From Enterobacteria phage ATK47, in sequence record NC_055708.1: a DNA stretch of 64,000 bases; one strand, 5' to 3'. Each line of letters starts with the position of its first letter. Position 1 is the stretch's first letter. The translations under genes were made by a program, and so were the position numbers. Below, piece by piece: positions 5,486 through 53,917 of the stretch. The notes under the pieces were generated by a model. It had not been told where the DNA came from, made no database searches, and saw nothing but the letters and a program-made list of their open reading frames with translations.

Positions 5486-5713
5486 ATGGCTAAAGTTAGT
5501 ATTGATGTCGTTGATTATGAATACACAGAAGAAGTTATTCGCAACCGTCACCCTGAAGTTCGTATCGATTCAGTACAAGATTCCAAGTTCTGGACAACTG
5601 AGCTTAATCTGAGTGGTCCTTATGAAGCTGTTAAGAAGTTCATGGTTGAAGAATACTGCGAAGGAATGCACCCGGAAGACGCCAAGTTTTATGTCAATTT
5701 GATTAAAAAATAA
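5486..5713 (+). CDS. hypothetical protein
   Basis: 75 aa ORF with SD AGAGGAG. Confidence 0.5.
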   Translation: MAKVSIDVVDYEYTEEVIRNRHPEVRIDSVQDSKFWTTELNLSGPYEAVKKFMVEEYCEGMHPEDAKFYVNLIKK

Positions 5714-5748
5714 TTTACAAACTCTTGAGAGCAGAGTATAATGCTCTC
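5714..5748 (+). promoter_or_regulatory. promoter cassette: TTTACAAACTCTTGAGAG..GAGTATAAT with -10 inside palindrome gagagca/tgctctc
   Basis: near-identical second copy at 36017-36052 with compensatory stem changes. Confidence 0.5.
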
Positions 5749-5783
5749 ATTGGATAATAAACCACCAATTGAAAGGTAATAAT

Positions 5784-6377
5784 ATGAACACACTGAAGAA
5801 ACTTGTTGAATTCATCCGCACTAAACTGGGTACTGCTATGGCTAAAAATCTGACTGTCGAAGAACAGTATAACGCAGCTGCAGATAAGTTGATTACCCAA
5901 ATCAAAGAACTAAAAACGGCTTCTGTTAAATCTATTAATGAAGAAAAACGTATTCGCGAACTTGTTAATGAAAAGAACAAGCAAGCCGCTTCTAAGGAAC
6001 GTGAAATTCGTAAGCTCCTGGCTGAAGGACAAGATGTTACCATGCATGCTAAGCTTGGTCTTCTGTATCGTCGAACTGCCGAACAACTTAATACAAAAGC
6101 TGACGGGTATGCCGCTATGCGAATTGAAATTGCTCGTAAGGTGGTTGAACTTGATGATGCTCGTCAGAACCTGGCAATCAAACTCGAATACATTCGTGAA
6201 ACTCGAGCAGCCAATGCCCTTGGTATCTCTACGGCTGATGATGTAATTGAAATCGCTGCACTGACTAAGGTTGATATCGAAGACACTCTGACTCGTGTTG
6301 AAACGTTCAATGGCACTCCAGCTGGTGTCGAAACCACTTCTGCTGATGTACAAGAATATATTAACTCTTTGAAATAA
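5784..6377 (+). CDS. coiled-coil protein of unknown function
   Basis: 197 aa, heptad-rich, SD AAAGGTAA. Confidence 0.5.
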
Positions 6378-6385
6378 AATAATAC

Positions 6386-6408
6386 GGAGGACTCCGGTCC
6401 TCCTTTTG
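6386..6408 (+). terminator. rho-independent terminator (ggaggac tccg gtcctcc TTTT)
   Basis: perfect 7 bp stem and T-run. Confidence 0.6.
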
Positions 6409-23098: not shown

Positions 23099-23127
23099 GA
23101 AACGAAATGAGTAAATTGGAGAATAAA

Positions 23128-24108
23128 ATGTTCAACGTTCAAATCAAAAAAGGTATCTATCGTAATAACGAAATCTCTGGTTCTTATGTTGCCACAAAGA
23201 CATGGTTCCCGGCAAAGCTTAATCCTGAATGTTCCCACTTAGGTGATGGTAAAATTTTCGTTATGATTGATGGTTCTGAACGTGGAGTATGGGTCTTCAA
23301 ATCAGACATCGTAATGGAAGGAGTTGAGACGTCACCAGTTGCAGTTGTTGAAAGCACTGAAGATATGAAAACTCGTATCAACAAACGCTTTAAAGTAATG
23401 AACATGATGACGAATGGCATTATTGATGGCAAAATTCGTTCACTCATTATTTCAGGTGCAGCTGGTATTGGTAAGACGTATTCTCTGGATAAAGCACTTA
23501 ATAATGCTAATGATAATGGTTTCATCAAATACAAAAGCATTAATGGTAAAATCTCCGGTATTGGCCTTTACGAACAACTTTGGCTCAACCGTGATGAAGA
23601 CAGCGTTCTCTTAATCGATGACGTTGACGTATTCTCAGATATGGACATCCTGAACCTTCTTAAAGCAGCATTAGATACCGGAGATAAACGCAAAGTTTGT
23701 TGGAGCACTGCGTCATCTTATCTCGAGGATAAGGGTATTGATAAAGAATTTGAGTTTGAAGGTACTATCGTTTTCATTACAAACGTTGATATCGATAAAG
23801 AGTTAGAACGGGGTTCGAAACTTGCTCCACACCTTCAAGCTTTAGTATCTCGTTCAGTGTATCTCGACCTTGGAGTACACTCTAATGAAGAGATTATGGT
23901 TCGAGTTGAAGATGTAATATTATCTACTGATATGATGCAGAAACGTGGCTTGACTGATGCTGAAACGTATAAAGCATTGTCCTGGATGAAGGCTAATGTA
24001 TCTCGTCTTCGCAATGTATCATTACGTACGGCTCTTTATGTAGCAGATTTTATTTCAACCGATAAAGATGGTTGGGAGGAAATCTCCGAAGTAACTTTAC
24101 TGAAATAA
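23128..24108 (+). CDS. AAA/P-loop ATPase
   Basis: Walker A GAAGIGKT, Walker B VLLIDDVD. Confidence 0.6.
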   Translation: MFNVQIKKGIYRNNEISGSYVATKTWFPAKLNPECSHLGDGKIFVMIDGSERGVWVFKSDIVMEGVETSPVAVVESTEDMKTRINKRFKVMNMMTNGIIDGKIRSLIISGAAGIGKTYSLDKALNNANDNGFIKYKSINGKISGIGLYEQLWLNRDEDSVLLIDDVDVFSDMDILNLLKAALDTGDKRKVCWSTASSYLEDKGIDKEFEFEGTIVFITNVDIDKELERGSKLAPHLQALVSRSVYLDLGVHSNEEIMVRVEDVILSTDMMQKRGLTDAETYKALSWMKANVSRLRNVSLRTALYVADFISTDKDGWEEISEVTLLK

Positions 24109-24245
24109 GCTTATAGGAAGTTCTGAGGTAACAAAAGCCATAAAGATGAATAATCATATGGCTTACCTCAAAGAAGGACACCAGGAACCTACTGAGGGCA
24201 TAGAAATATTTAAAATAATGATGTACAAATCAAAGAGGATATGTT

Positions 24246-24533
24246 ATGGATTTTATGCAAAAAATTAAAGCCGCAGTCGAACTCTATGCTCATCGTATGG
24301 TTAGTTCTACGATGCAATATAGCGAGGAGGTTCGCCAGGACTCTTCCTTGAAAGGAAAAACTAAAGCCTTAATTACCTTAGATCGTTTGCAAAAGAATGC
24401 CATAGAGATGCTCCAGTACGACAAGGGTGTATATAAGAAAGAACAGGAAGAGAAACTTAAATCTGAAAAATTACAAAAAATCCCGAAGTCGGTTTGGTTC
24501 AGTGGAAAAAATACCGAAAAAAGTTTCTTTTAG
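24246..24533 (+). CDS. hypothetical protein
   Basis: 95 aa ORF with SD AGAGGA. Confidence 0.4.
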   Translation: MDFMQKIKAAVELYAHRMVSSTMQYSEEVRQDSSLKGKTKALITLDRLQKNAIEMLQYDKGVYKKEQEEKLKSEKLQKIPKSVWFSGKNTEKSFF

Positions 24534-24535
24534 TT

Positions 24536-24575
24536 GTTTACAAGGTCTATGGTTATGTTATTATAGACCTATCAA
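24536..24575 (+). promoter_or_regulatory. early promoter with palindrome aggtctat/atagacct
   Basis: GTTTACA, TATTAT. Confidence 0.5.
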
Positions 24576-24591
24576 CTACTGGAGGTAAAAC

Positions 24592-25119
24592 ATGAACGCT
24601 AAAGATATTTTCAACCTGGTAAATTATAACGACGGTAAATTTAAATCTGAAGCACAAAGCAAGTTCTTTAATGACGTTGCTTATGGTAACGAGATTACCG
24701 TAGATGGAGGTCAGATTTTCAAATCTCGCTGGAATTGGATTGTTATCATCGATTCAGTTGGAATTGTGGAAGTCTACAAAAACACTAACAAAAACCGTAC
24801 ATTATTCTGGTCTCGTGAAACTAACGAGCAGTACAAAAAGGATAAAGCATCTCGTTTATCCAAAGTAACCCAGGAAGATATCGAGTTTATTAAGAAAGAT
24901 ATCGAGATGTACGAAAATTTAATCGCTGAAGACCAGGCAGTACTCGATAAGTTTGATGAAATTAAAGCTTCTCGTGAAATCCCTGACTTCATGAAAGAAA
25001 CAGTAAACGAACGATACGCTCTCACTTCAGAACGTATTGCAAACTATACAAAACAGAAAGCAGAACGTATTAGTACTCTTCGGAAATTTGAAGAACGTTT
25101 AAAGACGGTTCACGCATAA
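24592..25119 (+). CDS. hypothetical protein
   Basis: 175 aa ORF with SD GGAGG. Confidence 0.5.
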   Translation: MNAKDIFNLVNYNDGKFKSEAQSKFFNDVAYGNEITVDGGQIFKSRWNWIVIIDSVGIVEVYKNTNKNRTLFWSRETNEQYKKDKASRLSKVTQEDIEFIKKDIEMYENLIAEDQAVLDKFDEIKASREIPDFMKETVNERYALTSERIANYTKQKAERISTLRKFEERLKTVHA

Positions 25120-25148
25120 ACGCTTTACCCAAGGACGGGTTATAATGG
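25119..25148 (+). promoter_or_regulatory. middle-type promoter (MotA-box-like CGCTTTA at about -30, TATAAT)
   Basis: resembles T4 middle promoter layout. Confidence 0.45.
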
Positions 25149-25181
25149 TTTTGAGTTCCAATTCAATCTGAGGAAATAGTT

Positions 25182-26177
25182 ATGAGCATTACATCTGATG
25201 CGATAAAACATGAAATTAACGGTTTATGTGCTTCACAGATTAAAGTGTGGTTTAAAGACCATAATGATCGCAGAGCGCTTAATTATGAACGAATTGCTAT
25301 CCAAGTTCATCAATTACTGGTTAGTAAATTTGATTTTCATATGCCGTCTGAAATCTATACTAATCTACCGCGAGCGCTTATTAAAGCGTGTAAAGGCTAC
25401 GGAAAATCAATGGCTGACGGAATCTTCAGCGCGCTGAATAAACTTAACGTTCTGTCGATGATTAACTCTAACAATATCCTGCGTAATCTAGGACGTACTG
25501 ATTTGTTCGGTCGTGAACAGTGTAAAATGCCTTTGAAACGGATTGTTGCTCATCTTAACGAGAACCAAACACGTTTTATGGCCGTAACAGCACGTTTACA
25601 AATGGGCCTAGATCGTCAGATGAACTTTAAAACTCATCCACGTTATTCAGGTTCAACAGACTTTTATAAATGTGAGCTTCAAAAGGTTGGTGGTAAAACT
25701 GTCTTAGTAGTTCGTGTAACGTTTGAAGGACGACGTCAAGGATATTTTGACATAATCGGCTCTGGTCTTAAACATTGTGGATTTATCGACGAAGTTGATA
25801 TCAAGCGAGACGGCATTGGATACCGTATTGGGTATGTTTGTACTCTTAAAGAAGAGATTTCAGGACCAGCTCCAGGACTAAAAGACGTTAGATATAAAGA
25901 CGAGCTCGTTGAAGAAATAAAAGAAGTTGAATATGATATCAACCAAGAAGATGCTCTTAAAGACCTTATTGATGAACTGAACCAAGATGTTATTCCTGTT
26001 CAGAAATTTGAATCAAAACATGCTGAGCAAATCAAATACTTTGAAGCTTTGATTAACGAACTTAATGTAACTATTCAACAGACTGACGATGAAATCTCAC
26101 GATTAGCAGGCTTAAACGGTAAAAATAAAACAGAACGAGCTAATCTTATTCAAGTAGTAAAACTTCTTAAGGAATGA
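25182..26177 (+). CDS. hypothetical protein with C-terminal coiled coil
   Basis: 331 aa ORF; first of three similar-sized tandem genes. Confidence 0.5.
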   Translation: MSITSDAIKHEINGLCASQIKVWFKDHNDRRALNYERIAIQVHQLLVSKFDFHMPSEIYTNLPRALIKACKGYGKSMADGIFSALNKLNVLSMINSNNILRNLGRTDLFGREQCKMPLKRIVAHLNENQTRFMAVTARLQMGLDRQMNFKTHPRYSGSTDFYKCELQKVGGKTVLVVRVTFEGRRQGYFDIIGSGLKHCGFIDEVDIKRDGIGYRIGYVCTLKEEISGPAPGLKDVRYKDELVEEIKEVEYDINQEDALKDLIDELNQDVIPVQKFESKHAEQIKYFEALINELNVTIQQTDDEISRLAGLNGKNKTERANLIQVVKLLKE

Positions 26178-26208
26178 TGTACAACCAAGGATGGTTGGAG
26201 TATAATAA
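26176..26208 (+). promoter_or_regulatory. promoter cassette AACCAAGGATGGTTGGAGTATAAT
   Basis: near-identical element at 27196-27228. Confidence 0.45.
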
Positions 26209-26232
26209 ATTTTTCAACATGAGGAATATAAA

Positions 26233-27192
26233 ATGGCTTTTATTACACGTAGAGAACTTATCAAAGAATTTACCTCGAACGCATATACTCCAGGACCTAA
26301 TCCTATCCGTATGCCTGTAAAGACTCCTGAAGAGATTGAGGAAATCTGTTCATATTATGGGATTACTTCTCGTATGTTTACCCAATTTGAATGCGTTACT
26401 AACACACCCGTTAAAGAGTTCATTAAAAATGGTGAGTTCAGCCGTTTATTGGCCAAACAGAAACTTCGTAATTTTTGTATTGGCGGTGAAGGTCAATATT
26501 TCGCTAAGCAGTTCCGGAATAACCTTAACAATCTGATGGCCATTGCTTCTCGTATTCGTCCTCAAGCAATTAACATGAAACATTTGAAATATACTTACGA
26601 TAAGTTAGAAATCATGGTTATCAGTGAGAACGAGTTCACTCTTACGTATAAACCTAAGAATGATAACGTTGCTCGTGTATTCCACCAAGCGTTGGAAGTT
26701 TTAGGTGATAATATCCACCAGATTAAAGCAATTTATTCTCGTGAGCTTAATATTATCGACCCTATCAAGAATAAGGGCCATATCGCTATCCAGGCTCGTG
26801 TATCTATTGGTAAAAAGGTTCCTGCACCATGGTGGCACAAAGACTCTGAATATTATCAAAATCTTAAAAAGGAAAATGCAACATTTGAAGCGTCAATTAC
26901 TGCAACCCCAATTGGTAATGCTGAAGTTCTAGGTTCATATTCTACTTCGGGTAAATCAATGTTTAAAGGTTTGCCAAATGTGTGCAAACTGTCTGCAGTA
27001 AAACTAAATGTTTCTAATGACCTTCTTCCGGTCGAAGATTACCATTACAATCAAATCAAGGCCACTATGGACCAACTGTCTGTTGAACTTGACAAAGCAC
27101 AAGCTAAGCTTCGTGATGCTCAAAGTGTTGTAACGAATCTCCAGTTGCAGTACTCTAAACTTTTTAACGCAATGAATGCATTAAAATCATAA
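26233..27192 (+). CDS. hypothetical protein with C-terminal coiled coil
   Basis: 319 aa ORF. Confidence 0.5.
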   Translation: MAFITRRELIKEFTSNAYTPGPNPIRMPVKTPEEIEEICSYYGITSRMFTQFECVTNTPVKEFIKNGEFSRLLAKQKLRNFCIGGEGQYFAKQFRNNLNNLMAIASRIRPQAINMKHLKYTYDKLEIMVISENEFTLTYKPKNDNVARVFHQALEVLGDNIHQIKAIYSRELNIIDPIKNKGHIAIQARVSIGKKVPAPWWHKDSEYYQNLKKENATFEASITATPIGNAEVLGSYSTSGKSMFKGLPNVCKLSAVKLNVSNDLLPVEDYHYNQIKATMDQLSVELDKAQAKLRDAQSVVTNLQLQYSKLFNAMNALKS

Positions 27193-27195
27193 AAC

Positions 27196-27228
27196 GGTTT
27201 ACAACCAAGGACGGTTGGAGTATAATGA
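27196..27228 (+). promoter_or_regulatory. promoter cassette GTTTACAACCAAGGACGGTTGGAGTATAAT
   Basis: second copy of 26176 element. Confidence 0.45.
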
Positions 27229-27254
27229 ATCTATCTTAACGAGAGGAAAATATT

Positions 27255-28205
27255 ATGACACGTTCACATTACATTGAATACTTTGCCGGGCTTATCGCTA
27301 ACGTTCATGCTCAGCGCGCTACTGGTGCACTAGGATTTGATGTTCCACACCGAGATGTAGTAAGTGGTATTCTTCGCGATTTTGGTACATACACAGGCCA
27401 AGAAAATCATATCTGTAAAGATACTCAAAATGCATATTCTCATTCATTAGGGACGCTGCTTCAATGGTTCAAACGTTCTCGTTTATTATCTTCTACTGTA
27501 GCTCGCGATAACATTAAAAACTTTATGAAGCCGAGCTTTATTAAATCTGTGACATCTAAAACCGATTTGGTTGAATTCACTATTGTTAATGATGTTAAAA
27601 AGACTCATTTGGCTGATTGGTTATCTACCATTCCTGAAACTAAATTTGCTGATAAATTTGCTTGTGAATTCAATAACCAAGTGAATATGCTTTTTAAACA
27701 TTCTCGTAAATTATTCACGGGCGGTGATGGTCGTACAAATAAAGTTCATGTTAAAGATTGGGTTACTGCAGTATTCAAACCGACCGGTAATGGTAACGCA
27801 TCATTATCAATTGATATCCAGGTTCCTTATTACTACTCACGTAATCTCGGTACCATGAAAGCCGAAGAAATTAATAAGCACAACAAAACCGTTCGTTCAT
27901 TGTCTTATAAACTTATTACATTGTTAGAGACTATGGATGTTGTTGAAACGTTCGACGAATCCGAAGATAACGGTTCAATGTTATACAGTTCTCGTACCAG
28001 AATTAAGCTGAAGAACCCTAACGAGTATAAACTTAAGACTATTAAAGAACCTAAAGTAGAAAAAGTTGACAACTTGAGCGAAGAACGTGAATACCTCAAA
28101 TCTCGTCTGAAAGAAGTCGAAGCCCAGATTAAAGAACAAACTAAATCGTTAAAAGCTCTTAATGCGAAAGCGGATGGTTTACGAAATGCCATTGAGGTTT
28201 TATAA
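27255..28205 (+). CDS. hypothetical protein with C-terminal coiled coil
   Basis: 316 aa ORF. Confidence 0.5.
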   Translation: MTRSHYIEYFAGLIANVHAQRATGALGFDVPHRDVVSGILRDFGTYTGQENHICKDTQNAYSHSLGTLLQWFKRSRLLSSTVARDNIKNFMKPSFIKSVTSKTDLVEFTIVNDVKKTHLADWLSTIPETKFADKFACEFNNQVNMLFKHSRKLFTGGDGRTNKVHVKDWVTAVFKPTGNGNASLSIDIQVPYYYSRNLGTMKAEEINKHNKTVRSLSYKLITLLETMDVVETFDESEDNGSMLYSSRTRIKLKNPNEYKLKTIKEPKVEKVDNLSEEREYLKSRLKEVEAQIKEQTKSLKALNAKADGLRNAIEVL

Positions 28206-28510
28206 TGAAACTACGTCTTTTAGAGGATATTGATATGAACACTAATCACAGCTTGGTTAAGTTTATTGACGATAGTTCAAAGATTGAATTTGTTCAGCGA
28301 GATAAAATCCACGGTGAAGAAGAGTTCGTTCCTCCAGCATGGAACGAAATCATGAAAATGGTTGAACGACGTGAAAATGCTGCCAAATCGGCAGCAAAAC
28401 ACCCATGTCCGGAATGTGGAACTATCCAAGTCCAACTGGTTAACTGGACCACTGATAACTTGAAATTGAAATGCCGTAAATGCTTCCACAATTTTGAGAG
28501 AACATTATAA
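28205..28510 (+). CDS. zinc-ribbon protein
   Basis: CPECG...CRKCFH. Confidence 0.45.
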   Translation: MKLRLLEDIDMNTNHSLVKFIDDSSKIEFVQRDKIHGEEEFVPPAWNEIMKMVERRENAAKSAAKHPCPECGTIQVQLVNWTTDNLKLKCRKCFHNFERTL

Positions 28511-28923
28511 TGAGATATAGCCTTCGTTGTTTTATCGCAGCTTTAGTTTTTGCTATTATTCCATTCATTTGGAACAGCCAGAATACTTACATGGAAACTA
28601 AAGTAATTCCTGTGGAGGTAGTGGAATTAATCTCAGGACAATCTACAGGAAAATATTCTAAATTGGAATTTATTGCAGTCTATAAAGATGAGCAAGGACG
28701 AGTTTTTGACAGGCGTGTATCGCCATCGTTTTATACGCTTCTGAATAAAGGTGATACGATAGCTATAGAAATTCGTGAGATGGATATCAAACAAACTACT
28801 AAAGATAACTTGATTTGGTTCTTTGGTACAGTGTTGTTGGTTTCTATCTGTATCACAGGTTTTATTACATGTATTGTATTTGGCGTTGCATATTTAATCG
28901 ATGAAAGGAAAAATAATGTTTAA
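28510..28923 (+). CDS. membrane protein
   Basis: N- and C-terminal TM segments. Confidence 0.45.
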   Translation: MRYSLRCFIAALVFAIIPFIWNSQNTYMETKVIPVEVVELISGQSTGKYSKLEFIAVYKDEQGRVFDRRVSPSFYTLLNKGDTIAIEIREMDIKQTTKDNLIWFFGTVLLVSICITGFITCIVFGVAYLIDERKNNV

Positions 28924-29179
28924 AGTGTACGGGTACGACTCTACTATTCATAAATGCATTTATTGCGATAATGCGAAACGATTGCTGACTGTTAAGAAAC
29001 AGCCATTCGAATTCATTAATGTTATGCCGGAAAAAGGTGTTTTTGATGATGAGAAAATTGCTGAGCTTCTGGCTAAGCTTGGACGTGAAACACATGTTGG
29101 ATTGACGATGCCTCAGGTGTTTGCTCCTGACGGAAGTCACATTGGTGGATTTGACCAACTACGAGAATATTTTAAATGA
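28916..29179 (+). CDS. nrdC: glutaredoxin/thioredoxin NrdC
   Basis: MFKVYGYDS..IHKCIYCDNAKRLL..MPQVFAPDGSHIGGFDQLREYFK matches remembered T4 NrdC; 87 aa. Confidence 0.85.
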   Translation: MFKVYGYDSTIHKCIYCDNAKRLLTVKKQPFEFINVMPEKGVFDDEKIAELLAKLGRETHVGLTMPQVFAPDGSHIGGFDQLREYFK

Positions 29180-53018: not shown

Positions 53019-53917
53019 TGGCTATTTTCCGCGTACCAATCTTGAGTATGCGGTCTTATGAAACTGGACAGTATGCTATCCTTAAGGATGGCAACTTCCA
53101 ACTTCATTTGCACCGTGCTAATCCAGGTGATGTGATTACATATCCACGTAATGCATCTGATATTAAAGAATGTGAACGTCTTTTCCCGGAATTTAAGTTT
53201 GTTCCATTATGGTATAAAGATAACGCGTATAACACTCGTAAATATTTCTGGTCTGAAAATGAATTTGTGGTTGATTCATTAATTGCTTATTATGATTGTG
53301 ATTTTCTAATAACAGATATCACTGGATATGACGGCGCTTTTGATGTAGAATTCAATTTCAATATCACTGCAGACCCTAATAAACCACGTTTTTATATTGA
53401 TGAATTCTTAAAAACCGATATGTTGTCGGTTAATCGTTCACTTCAAACTACTGTGTTGAATGAACGTCAAAAAGAAGTGCTGGTTAACGCCGGTGCAGAT
53501 GGTAATAAGATTATCGTAACGCAGAAAGTTATACGTCCTTCCATCATGCAGCGTCTTGTAGGTGATTTGGCTCCTATTCATGTAGATGGTATTTTTCATC
53601 CATTTCGAATTAGTGATCCGTGTTATCATTTTGAACAAGTGGTTGAATGTGCAATTCAATTAGGTCAACCGCTTTATATAACTGATCCAAATAATAGCTT
53701 TGACAGAAATAAGTATCCTGAAGAAGCGCTGATTCGAATTTTTAAACCAACTAAAACTGAGTACTATCAAATTCTTAAAGGACGTCCGAAGATTCAATAT
53801 TTCGAAAATCCTGAAGAAGTATTCCATCCAGGTCTTGGTGAGTTCATCTACTTTAATGCTTTAATTTCTTCGCCGTATAATATACCTAAATACGAAGATG
53901 TCGTAATCGAGGAATAA
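53018..53917 (+). CDS. hypothetical protein at T4 beta-gt position (candidate DNA glycosyltransferase)
   Basis: 299 aa ORF, position only; no motif recognised. Confidence 0.4.
   Translation: MAIFRVPILSMRSYETGQYAILKDGNFQLHLHRANPGDVITYPRNASDIKECERLFPEFKFVPLWYKDNAYNTRKYFWSENEFVVDSLIAYYDCDFLITDITGYDGAFDVEFNFNITADPNKPRFYIDEFLKTDMLSVNRSLQTTVLNERQKEVLVNAGADGNKIIVTQKVIRPSIMQRLVGDLAPIHVDGIFHPFRISDPCYHFEQVVECAIQLGQPLYITDPNNSFDRNKYPEEALIRIFKPTKTEYYQILKGRPKIQYFENPEEVFHPGLGEFIYFNALISSPYNIPKYEDVVIEE

Follow-up and report, generated by a model that had tools for sequence, protein, structure and literature searches.

Three tandem genes of the Enterobacteria phage ATK47 (sequence record NC_055708.1), encoding proteins of 331, 319, and 316 amino acids (aa), are best explained, when the data are taken as a whole, as diverged paralogs with an early anti-defence role, and we consider this explanation reasonably probable. 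The DNA that was analysed comprises 64,000 nucleotides (nt) and is called here the window. All three open reading frames (ORFs) are located on the + strand, at 25182–26177, 26233–27192, and 27255–28205, with the positions and sizes given by an earlier sequence-only reading. They belong to the accessory nrdC block, in which they are located between nrdC.8 and nrdC, with endonuclease VII (gene 49) and nrdD further downstream. An identity of 100% to the window was found for Enterobacteria phage ATK48 (KT184310), an RB69-like phage (Straboviridae, Tevenvirinae, Mosigvirus), and ~140 other Mosigvirus genomes are 96–99% identical to the queried region. Up to now, the genes were known as conserved hypotheticals, one of them in a family with a published counter-defence phenotype. 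New here are the proposal that NrdC.3, NrdC.4, NrdC.5, and NrdC.6 constitute one superfamily expanded from a single gene (no paper stating so was found) and the description of an apparently conserved, covarying AGGA hairpin embedded in promoters.

Relationship of the three proteins

The first gene (25182–26177) is NrdC.6-like (PF26899, phrog_2257; match to the latter 2.6e-126). Its product is 29–33% identical to Tequatrovirus NrdC.6 over ~92% of its length (32–33% over 92% in tblastn, E ~1e-26), exceeds these proteins by about 35–55 aa, and is taken as the ortholog of T4 NrdC.6 (about 30%); the gene is placed after nrdC.8, as expected for this family. The second gene (26233–27192) belongs to the NrdC.5 family (Pfam DUF7235, PF23882; phrog_2351) and encodes the protein named NrdC.5 in RB69. 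Its product scores 405.5 bits on the DUF7235 model, with residues 15–318 aligned to profile positions 1–307 of 307 (the gathering score is 30 bits). Since T4 NrdC.5 matches the same model with 420.6 bits, the gene is considered a bona fide member of the NrdC.5 family; the identity between the two proteins is 26% over 308 aa. Its surroundings are syntenic, with an NrdC.6-type gene before it and an NrdC.4- or NrdC.3-type gene after it in Mosigvirus, Tequatrovirus, and JS98/VR5-like loci. The third gene (27255–28205) is NrdC.3-like (PF26897, phrog_1435, the former precomputed on all homologs) and its product, 56% identical to T4 NrdC.3 over 100% of the length, is the ortholog of that protein. It is located directly upstream of an nrdC.2-like gene, and its stop overlaps the start of the latter at 28205. 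T4 carries four such genes consecutively, nrdC.6, nrdC.5, nrdC.4, and nrdC.3, coding for 275 to 340 aa. Sequence searches of the PDB with the three proteins gave no relatives, nor did known domains match.

Pairwise BLASTP among the 331-, 319-, and 316-aa proteins detects no similarity, and the sequence-only reading had described their N-terminal regions as unrelated. Profile–profile comparison contradicts this description, as it reveals N-terminal and central homology despite the silence of BLASTP. The locus was collected from three phages in GenBank and from another 30 T4-like contigs, and the family alignments built from it were compared with hhalign; the comparisons were repeated after removal of the C-terminal tail, which excludes the signal of a shared helix, and column shuffles and reversal served as controls. 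NrdC.4 matched NrdC.3 with a probability of 98% (E 4e-13; 9e-14 with the tail removed) and NrdC.5 with 79–92% (E 2e-5 to 7e-7, the latter value with the tail removed). For NrdC.3 and NrdC.5 the probability was 82% (E 1e-5), with the match confined to the C-terminal 46 residues. The family present as a single copy in Karamvirus-type phages matched NrdC.5 (98%, E 2e-14; tail removed E 2e-6), NrdC.6 (94%, E 1e-7; tail removed E 7e-5), and NrdC.4 (91%, E 1e-6; tail removed E 2e-5). In shuffle controls, the tail-removed score of NrdC.4 against NrdC.5 was 51.6 vs. 13.6 ± 2.4 for shuffles, that of NrdC.6 against NrdC.5 was 29.4 vs. 13.3 ± 2.0, and those of the single-copy family against NrdC.6, NrdC.5, and NrdC.4 were 38.9, 48.9, and 42.0, with shuffles at ~13 ± 2–3. 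The pairs covered by these controls, from which NrdC.4–NrdC.3 is absent, thus lie 6–16 standard deviations above the shuffles.

The same relationships were found when profiles were run over the 135 ORFs of the window. The best non-self matches of the NrdC.5 hidden Markov model (HMM) were the 316- and 331-aa genes, those of the single-copy family HMM were the 331- and 319-aa genes, and the HMM of NrdC.4, a family absent from the window, ranked the 316- and 331-aa genes first. A mixed HMM of three families was dropped, as it lost sensitivity. At the residue level, motif A, ..(F/L)K.s.LLS....+..L.NF, is represented in the 331-aa protein by ALNKLNVLSMINSNNILRNLG, in the 319-aa protein by EFIKNGEFSRLLAKQKLRNFC, and in the 316-aa protein by WFKRSRLLSSTVARDNIKNFM. 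A second motif, B, has the pattern F..+F..N...l...A.+L..G..RQ; the two motifs are collinear and occupy similar positions in all families, and both are aligned consistently by the independent pairwise comparisons. In one MAFFT run on 15 representatives, motifs A and B, two beta blocks, a P-[VI]-E turn, and the terminal L..A[LIVM]..L(K) fell in register. The C-terminal end motif occurs in 10 of the 15 family representatives vs. 1 of ~382 unrelated ORFs.

It might be argued that low-complexity or coiled-coil composition, combined with shallow alignments, produces such similarity as an artefact, and that the three genes, alike in size, are unrelated ORFs sharing a duplicated promoter cassette. The low probabilities obtained with hhalign for NrdC.6 (12–14% against NrdC.5, at most 9% against NrdC.4 or NrdC.3), the low Neff of the alignments, and the origin of cross-hits in Foldseek from poor models agree with this explanation. 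However, the signal vanishes on column shuffling and reversal, the matches fall in non-coiled regions, the independent pairwise alignments are concordant, the NrdC.5 and single-copy HMMs place neighbouring genes first, and both poor AlphaFold models match the same T4-like-phage proteins of 318–346 aa in BFVD. An artefact is therefore considered very improbable.

The second debatable issue is how the relationship arose. The sequence-only reading proposed domain swapping, in which three unrelated N-terminal effector domains are carried on a common C-terminal coiled-coil scaffold. The silence of pairwise BLASTP, the restriction of the NrdC.3–NrdC.5 link to the C-terminal 46 residues, the partly C-terminal location of the signal between Marfavirus and NrdC.5 and between Karamvirus and DUF7235, and the hypervariability of the linker before the helix, which carries indels, would fit such a proposal. 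Against it, families deprived of the tail still match collinearly, with cross-family scores far above shuffles, motifs A and B keep the same order and similar positions, and the order of secondary-structure elements is equal in both AlphaFold models. No swapping was seen inside the proteins, and the collinear tail-removed matches point to whole-gene duplication followed by extreme divergence, so that swapping of domains appears improbable. The comparison with orthologous loci in related phages likewise supports an ancient tandem expansion and not domain swapping. It was not a lack of any structural relationship between the three proteins that was found; they appear to be related, though otherwise than had been proposed. 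The reading of the genes as highly diverged full-length paralogs, which is based on sequence profiles, is thus very probable for NrdC.3, NrdC.4, and NrdC.5, and the inclusion of NrdC.6 in the same family is probable to a somewhat lower degree.

If the genes are paralogs, each protein would share one layout: an N-terminal helical region with the two conserved motifs, a beta-alpha-beta middle part, a hypervariable linker, the P-[VI]-E turn, and a C-terminal heptad helix, which would end in L-x-x-A-[LIVM]-x-x-L-K. Both AlphaFold2 models, poor as they are, present the same order of elements: the N-terminal part is helical and is followed by a beta hairpin, a helix, a second beta hairpin, a disordered linker, and a C-terminal helix. 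Residues 275–315, predicted better than the rest of the 316-aa model (pLDDT 70–80), form a single long helix, and the linker ahead of the C-terminal helix is hypervariable, with indels. Foldseek searches of BFVD with the poor models returned their own family plus weak cross-hits to E5EYP0, A0A1Z1LY96, and IME523, the T4-like-phage proteins of 318–346 aa mentioned above, a result that is suggestive but does not decide the matter. The claim that each protein ends in a predicted coiled coil held at the level of sequence. A C-terminal helix with heptad periodicity is present in all three (3.5-residue hydrophobic periodicity vs. shuffles, p = 0.007, 0.022, and 0.0015; hydrophobic occupancy of a/d positions 0.65–0.93), although in the 331-aa protein the C-terminal segment contains a G-rich break (AGLNGKNK), and such periodicity is no proof of a coiled coil. 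The helix may serve oligomerisation or the binding of a shared partner. Conservation across the superfamily is limited to hydrophobic positions and a few N, R, G, and P residues; no catalytic-looking constellation of residues is conserved superfamily-wide in the alignment of 15 representatives, hence binding proteins fit better than enzymes.

Several points weigh against the paralog reading in the form presented here. The alignments are shallow (Neff about 1.5–2), which makes the hhalign probabilities rough. Direct hhalign comparison of NrdC.6 with NrdC.3 or NrdC.4 is not significant (at most 9%, mostly below 1%), therefore the link of NrdC.6 to the others runs through intermediates, i.e., the single-copy family and NrdC.5. 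The NrdC.6-like family is also small: HMMER found just 6 members in 1.84 billion representatives, and the NrdC.6 profile was consequently not deepened. For the 331-aa protein (5 sequences) AlphaFold2 gave a mean pLDDT of 48.5, and for the 316-aa protein (29 sequences) one of 53.3; models of this quality do not allow folds to be compared, so the shared fold is derived from sequence profiles and not from a confident three-dimensional model. Heptad periodicity does not prove a coiled coil at the C-terminus, and oligomerisation is inferred.

Counter-defence as a candidate function

The functional data come from the T4 system. An evolved T4 clone without nrdC.5 had become unable to infect ECOR17, and deletion of dsr1 in the host restored infection (Srikant et al., 2022, eLife, PMC9391042). 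Expression of T4 nrdC.5 restored plating on K-12 carrying dsr1, and Dsr1 was identified as a sirtuin (NADase) defence of E. coli ECOR17 counteracted by T4 NrdC.5 (PMC9391042). The neighbouring nrdC.1 was reported as an inhibitor of Septu (2025 preprint, bioRxiv 10.1101/2025.11.20.689424). Because T4 NrdC.5 neutralises Dsr1, nrdC.1 inhibits Septu, and the genes outpace their flanks in evolution, anti-defence is the most likely role of the array; fast divergence, variation in copy number, and mosaic alleles are the usual marks of arms-race genes. The 319-aa protein resembles T4 NrdC.5 in its full-length DUF7235, in its position in the array, and in the C-terminal helix with the end motif. It differs in sequence, and the anti-Dsr1 effect was demonstrated for the T4 protein. 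For the proteins of this phage, an anti-defence function, which is proposed by analogy with T4, is about evenly balanced between true and false.

As for the mechanism, direct binding of host immune proteins may be considered, again by analogy, though we hold it with less confidence than the function itself. DSAD1, the SPbeta-phage inhibitor of DSR2 (PMC10973363, PMC10981675), blocks a defence with a SIR2-domain NADase by direct binding. It offers a functional analogy only: its target is DSR2, not Dsr1, and it is likened here by mechanism, not by sequence. In the proposed scheme, each paralog would be adapted to its own target, a host immune protein or one allele of it, acting early as a non-enzymatic binder. 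As one member is known to overcome Dsr1, its paralogs would, if this explanation is correct, be obvious candidates for inhibitors of other defences and for determinants of host range.

Two facts speak against an anti-defence role. With an identity of only 26% to T4 NrdC.5, the 319-aa protein may not have kept the anti-Dsr1 activity, and the phenotype of the family is that of NrdC.5, not of NrdC.3, NrdC.4, or NrdC.6. It can be proposed that the genes are paralogs with another early function, such as host takeover, modulation of the nucleoid or transcription, or DNA metabolism, and that the effect of NrdC.5 on Dsr1 is indirect or specific to this member. The single complementation experiment behind the only phenotype, the proximity of an AAA-type ATPase (NrdC.10) and of the nucleotide-metabolism genes nrdC and nrdD, and the conservation of the family across many T4-like genera are consistent with such a function. 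However, the genes are dispensable in T4, where evolved clones that had lost them continued to grow on K-12, they diverge far faster than their flanks, vary in copy number, and form mosaic alleles, and nrdC.1 in the same block is an anti-Septu factor. Another early function is for these reasons considered fairly unlikely, and diverged paralogs with an early anti-defence role remain the preferred explanation.

A broader version of this explanation is held only tentatively. It assumes that NrdC.3, NrdC.4, NrdC.5, and NrdC.6 form one fast-evolving anti-defence superfamily with one scaffold and many targets, which arose in T-even phages by tandem duplication of the gene next to nrdC.2, and that the hairpins in their promoters are a functional RNA or a recombination element (e.g., RegB-type or PeSL-like) allowing independent expression, processing, or exchange of the genes. 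If this were true, three to four "hypothetical" early genes of hundreds of T-even phages, including candidates for therapy, would be one family with a testable job. The paralogy of the array would also illustrate cleanly how a counter-defence gene expands in tandem and diverges.

Promoters and the AGGA-loop hairpin

The sequence-only reading assigned a middle-type promoter to each of the three genes. In T4, a MotA-dependent middle promoter consists of the (a/t)(a/t)(a/t)TGCTTtA box located 12 ± 1 bp upstream of the TAtaaT −10 element and replacing the −35 element (Hinton, 2010, PMC2988021). The first promoter, before the 331-aa gene (25118–25146, + strand), agrees with this definition, with aaaCGCTTTA separated by 13 bp from TATAAT (25141–25146), and it was missed by a sigma-70 scan because it contains no −35 hexamer. 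For the second and third promoters the assignment failed: no MotA box is found 12 ± 1 bp upstream of the −10 element, where CAACCAAGG is present instead, and a −35-like hexamer is located 17 bp upstream of TATAAT. The promoter before the 319-aa gene (26178–26206, +) is TGTACA-N17-TATAAT, with 10 of 12 consensus matches, and that before the 316-aa gene (27198–27226, +) is TTTACA-N17-TATAAT, with 11 of 12; both are classified as sigma-70/early-type promoters. Compared with the T4/PST early consensus TTTACW-N17-TAYWAT (Comeau, 2014, PMC4122927), the third promoter is an exact fit with an A-rich sequence upstream, and the second has one mismatch.

The first promoter is orthologous to the T4 sequence aaCCGCTTTA-N12-TATAAT upstream of nrdC.7. 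The latter, PnrdC.7, is an experimentally mapped MotA-dependent middle promoter with a start site at 53325 (Hinton, 2010, PMC2988021 Table 1), which precedes the ATG of nrdC.7 by 23 nt and agrees with the prediction from sequence. Both promoters follow nrdC.8 and share the CGCTTTA box, the CCAAGGAYGG spacer, and TATAAT. The difference lies in the genes that they serve. The MotA/AsiA-dependent PnrdC.7 drives nrdC.7-nrdC.6-nrdC.5 in T4; here the first promoter would drive the NrdC.6-like gene directly, because nrdC.7 has moved to 28510–28923. For T4 nrdC.3 to nrdC.6 no middle promoter is listed (PMC2988021), the RNAs of nrdC.3, nrdC.4, nrdC.5, and nrdC.6 are classed as early, and all four proteins were detected (T4 omics, PMC9697503 supplements). 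While an early-type promoter precedes the 319-aa gene here, T4 nrdC.5 abuts nrdC.6 and has no promoter of its own. It is proposed that expression of the three genes precedes replication, with a MotA-dependent promoter serving the first and near-identical sigma-70 early-type cassettes serving the second and third. One reservation concerning this proposal is that the classes, middle for the first promoter and early for the other two, are assigned by geometry and T4 orthology and not by mapping in this phage. Since no + strand terminators were predicted within 25100–28205, read-through from upstream is also expected. Downstream, the stop of the 316-aa gene overlaps the next start (TAATG, 28203–28207), and the starts of the nrdC.2-like, nrdC.7-like (28510), and nrdC (28901–28923) genes abut or overlap as well, so the third promoter probably drives a translationally coupled unit of four genes.

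Two of the promoters do share the sequence that the earlier reading had pointed out, a 24-mer AACCAAGGAYGGTTGGAGTATAAT, or AACCAAGGA(T/C)GGTTGGAGTATAAT, present at 26183–26206 and 27203–27226. The second and third cassettes are identical at about 30 of 32 positions. As the proteins are beyond detection by BLAST and the cassettes near-identical, it is suggested that the cassette is under selection or evolves in concert. The core of the motif, CCAAGGAYGGKT (CCAAGGAYGG), occurs three times in 64 kb, once ahead of each gene (0.63 matches expected; 2 of 100 shuffles reach three). It folds as a hairpin, NN-CCA-AGGA-YGG-NN with an AGGA loop, inside the spacer between the −35 element, or the MotA box, and the −10 element. 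All three hairpins are on the + strand: ACCC(A)-AGGA-(C)GGGT in the first promoter (25127–25140), CAACCA-AGGA-TGGTTG with 6 bp and −6.9 kcal/mol in the second (26182–26197), and CAACC(A)-AGGA-(C)GGTTG in the third (27202–27217). On either strand of the window, AGGA-loop hairpins with a stem of at least 4 bp are found exclusively at these three promoters. The same hairpin precedes T4 nrdC.7, nrdC.4, and nrdC.3, as well as nrdC.6 and nrdC.4 of JS98/VR5-like phages.

The stems vary from site to site (TTATACCA/TGGTATAA, CCACA/TGTGG, AGCCA/TGGCT, CATCCA/TGGATG, CAACCA/TGGTTG). Over eight distinct versions of the hairpin, pairing is kept in 81% of cells vs. 63% after shuffling and at most 39% in slid registers. 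The covariation score is 0.48 vs. 0.13, the former value being reached by 0 of 500 shuffles, and one stem pair occurs in all four Watson-Crick forms. These data suggest a hairpin that covaries and is conserved across Mosig-, Tequatro-, and JS98/VR5-like phages; as the versions are few and come from paralogous sites, the covariation is suggestive rather than a proof. The stability across sites is −6 to −10 kcal/mol (−6 to −7 in the window; z +0.45 to −1.8), and a role as an intrinsic terminator was rejected, as the stem is weak and a U tract is absent. Nor is the hairpin a fixed promoter element, since relative to the −10 element it is shifted by ~5 nt in MotA-type compared with −35-type promoters. 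It is placed 5–10 nt past the upstream stop and before the local start site, and would thus be present only in read-through RNA.

Possible roles of the hairpin include a RegB-type site, a stabiliser of the 3′ end of the upstream-cistron mRNA, and a PeSL-like recombination cassette. RegB cuts GGAG/U, best with GGA unpaired and the fourth base constrained; contrary to a RegB-type site, the closing base of the hairpin flips between U and C in close relatives. The PeSL/PmSL cassettes (Arbiol, 2010, PMC2839356; Comeau, 2014, PMC4122927) are similar in being short repeated units of promoter and stem-loop between accessory ORFs of a hyperplastic region, in the TTTACW-N17-TAYWAT consensus, which fits here, and in the existence of a MotA-box version. 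In PeSL, however, the stem-loop immediately precedes the promoter and functions as a terminator, whereas the hairpin described here is inside the spacer, weak, and without a U tract. The single allele exchange that was examined also differs from PeSL exchange, as it breaks inside nrdC.3 and not at the cassette. Being embedded in promoters, the hairpin would be a small conserved regulatory element open to direct test in T4. A scan of IMG/VR for CCAAGGAYGG...TATAA gave mostly chance matches irrelevant to the promoter motif. One string recurrent there, CGCTTTGCCAAGGAYGG...TATAAG (contigs L036, L050, L059, L080, and others), lies inside a large tail-fibre-like coding region (…AYRFAKDG…) and is a coding coincidence.

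Evolution of the array and neighbouring genes

The composition of the array differs between phage groups. The more remote T4-like genera Karam-, Kanagawa-, Mosuguk-, and Marfavirus carry a single gene for 309–338 aa, placed immediately before nrdC.2, where the 316-aa gene is found in this phage. The Mosigvirus array consists of NrdC.6, NrdC.5, and NrdC.3 types, with no NrdC.4 copy; the T4-like array adds NrdC.4 and has nrdC.7 inserted after the middle promoter; in JS98/VR5-like phages the array comprises NrdC.6, NrdC.5, and NrdC.4 types. It may be assumed that the T-even clade expanded the single gene by tandem duplication to three copies (Mosigvirus, JS98/VR5-like) or four (T4). Between ATK48 and T4, the paralogs are 26–56% identical vs. 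78–84% for the flanking NrdC.10 and NrdC.8.

Swapping was seen at the level of the locus, as presence or absence of paralogs, relocation of nrdC.7, and mosaic NrdC.3 alleles. Tequatrovirus NrdC.3 exists as two alleles, one of which is nearer to the Mosigvirus gene (75% aa identity) than to that of T4 (56%). Comparison of two Tequatrovirus contigs that are nearly identical elsewhere (L005:11120-12070 vs. L006) showed ~100% identity through nrdC.4 and the promoter, after which DNA identity falls to 40–78% from ~90 nt inside nrdC.3 to ~100 nt inside nrdC.2. An exchange breaking at the promoter cassette was therefore rejected, as both breakpoints fall within genes, the left one ~90 nt into nrdC.3 and the right one in nrdC.2. 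The relocated nrdC.7-like gene, which encodes a membrane protein, is found at 28510–28923 between the nrdC.2-like gene and nrdC, while in T4 it is located between nrdC.8 and nrdC.6, right after the middle promoter.

The NrdC.6 of the T4 reference (NC_000866, contig L002, locus 5497–6394) has 275 aa and is frameshifted near its 3′ end (cf. L023:11450-12337). Other Tequatrovirus NrdC.6 proteins have 295 aa and end in ...KSEREKLIKIVDLLKS, and T4 keeps that sequence out of frame just before nrdC.5; the T4 protein consequently is without the C-terminal helix of the family. In the genera with a single member, an unrelated conserved gene for 256–284 aa is found one or two small ORFs upstream (L019:11842-12642, L153:1958-2743, L154:1580-2353, L155:2419-3189). 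It has no detectable similarity to the NrdC.3–NrdC.6 superfamily or to Pfam.

In GenBank, every nrdC.x gene across positions 23107–29179 of the window (KT184310 49096–53683) is labelled "thioredoxin", although the true NrdC is encoded at 28901–29179 only. These product names were rejected, since no thioredoxin domain was detected and the name was propagated from the locus label. The KT184310 record also contains dubious features within these genes, e.g., a "StbAB binding site" and an "IS2" 10-mer. At 23107–24108, the 333-aa NrdC.10-like protein gave weak P-loop matches of AAA/STAND type (AAA_22, AAA_16, nSTAND3; E 3e-4 to 2e-3) and is 78% identical to its T4 counterpart, i.e., far better conserved than the three paralogs.

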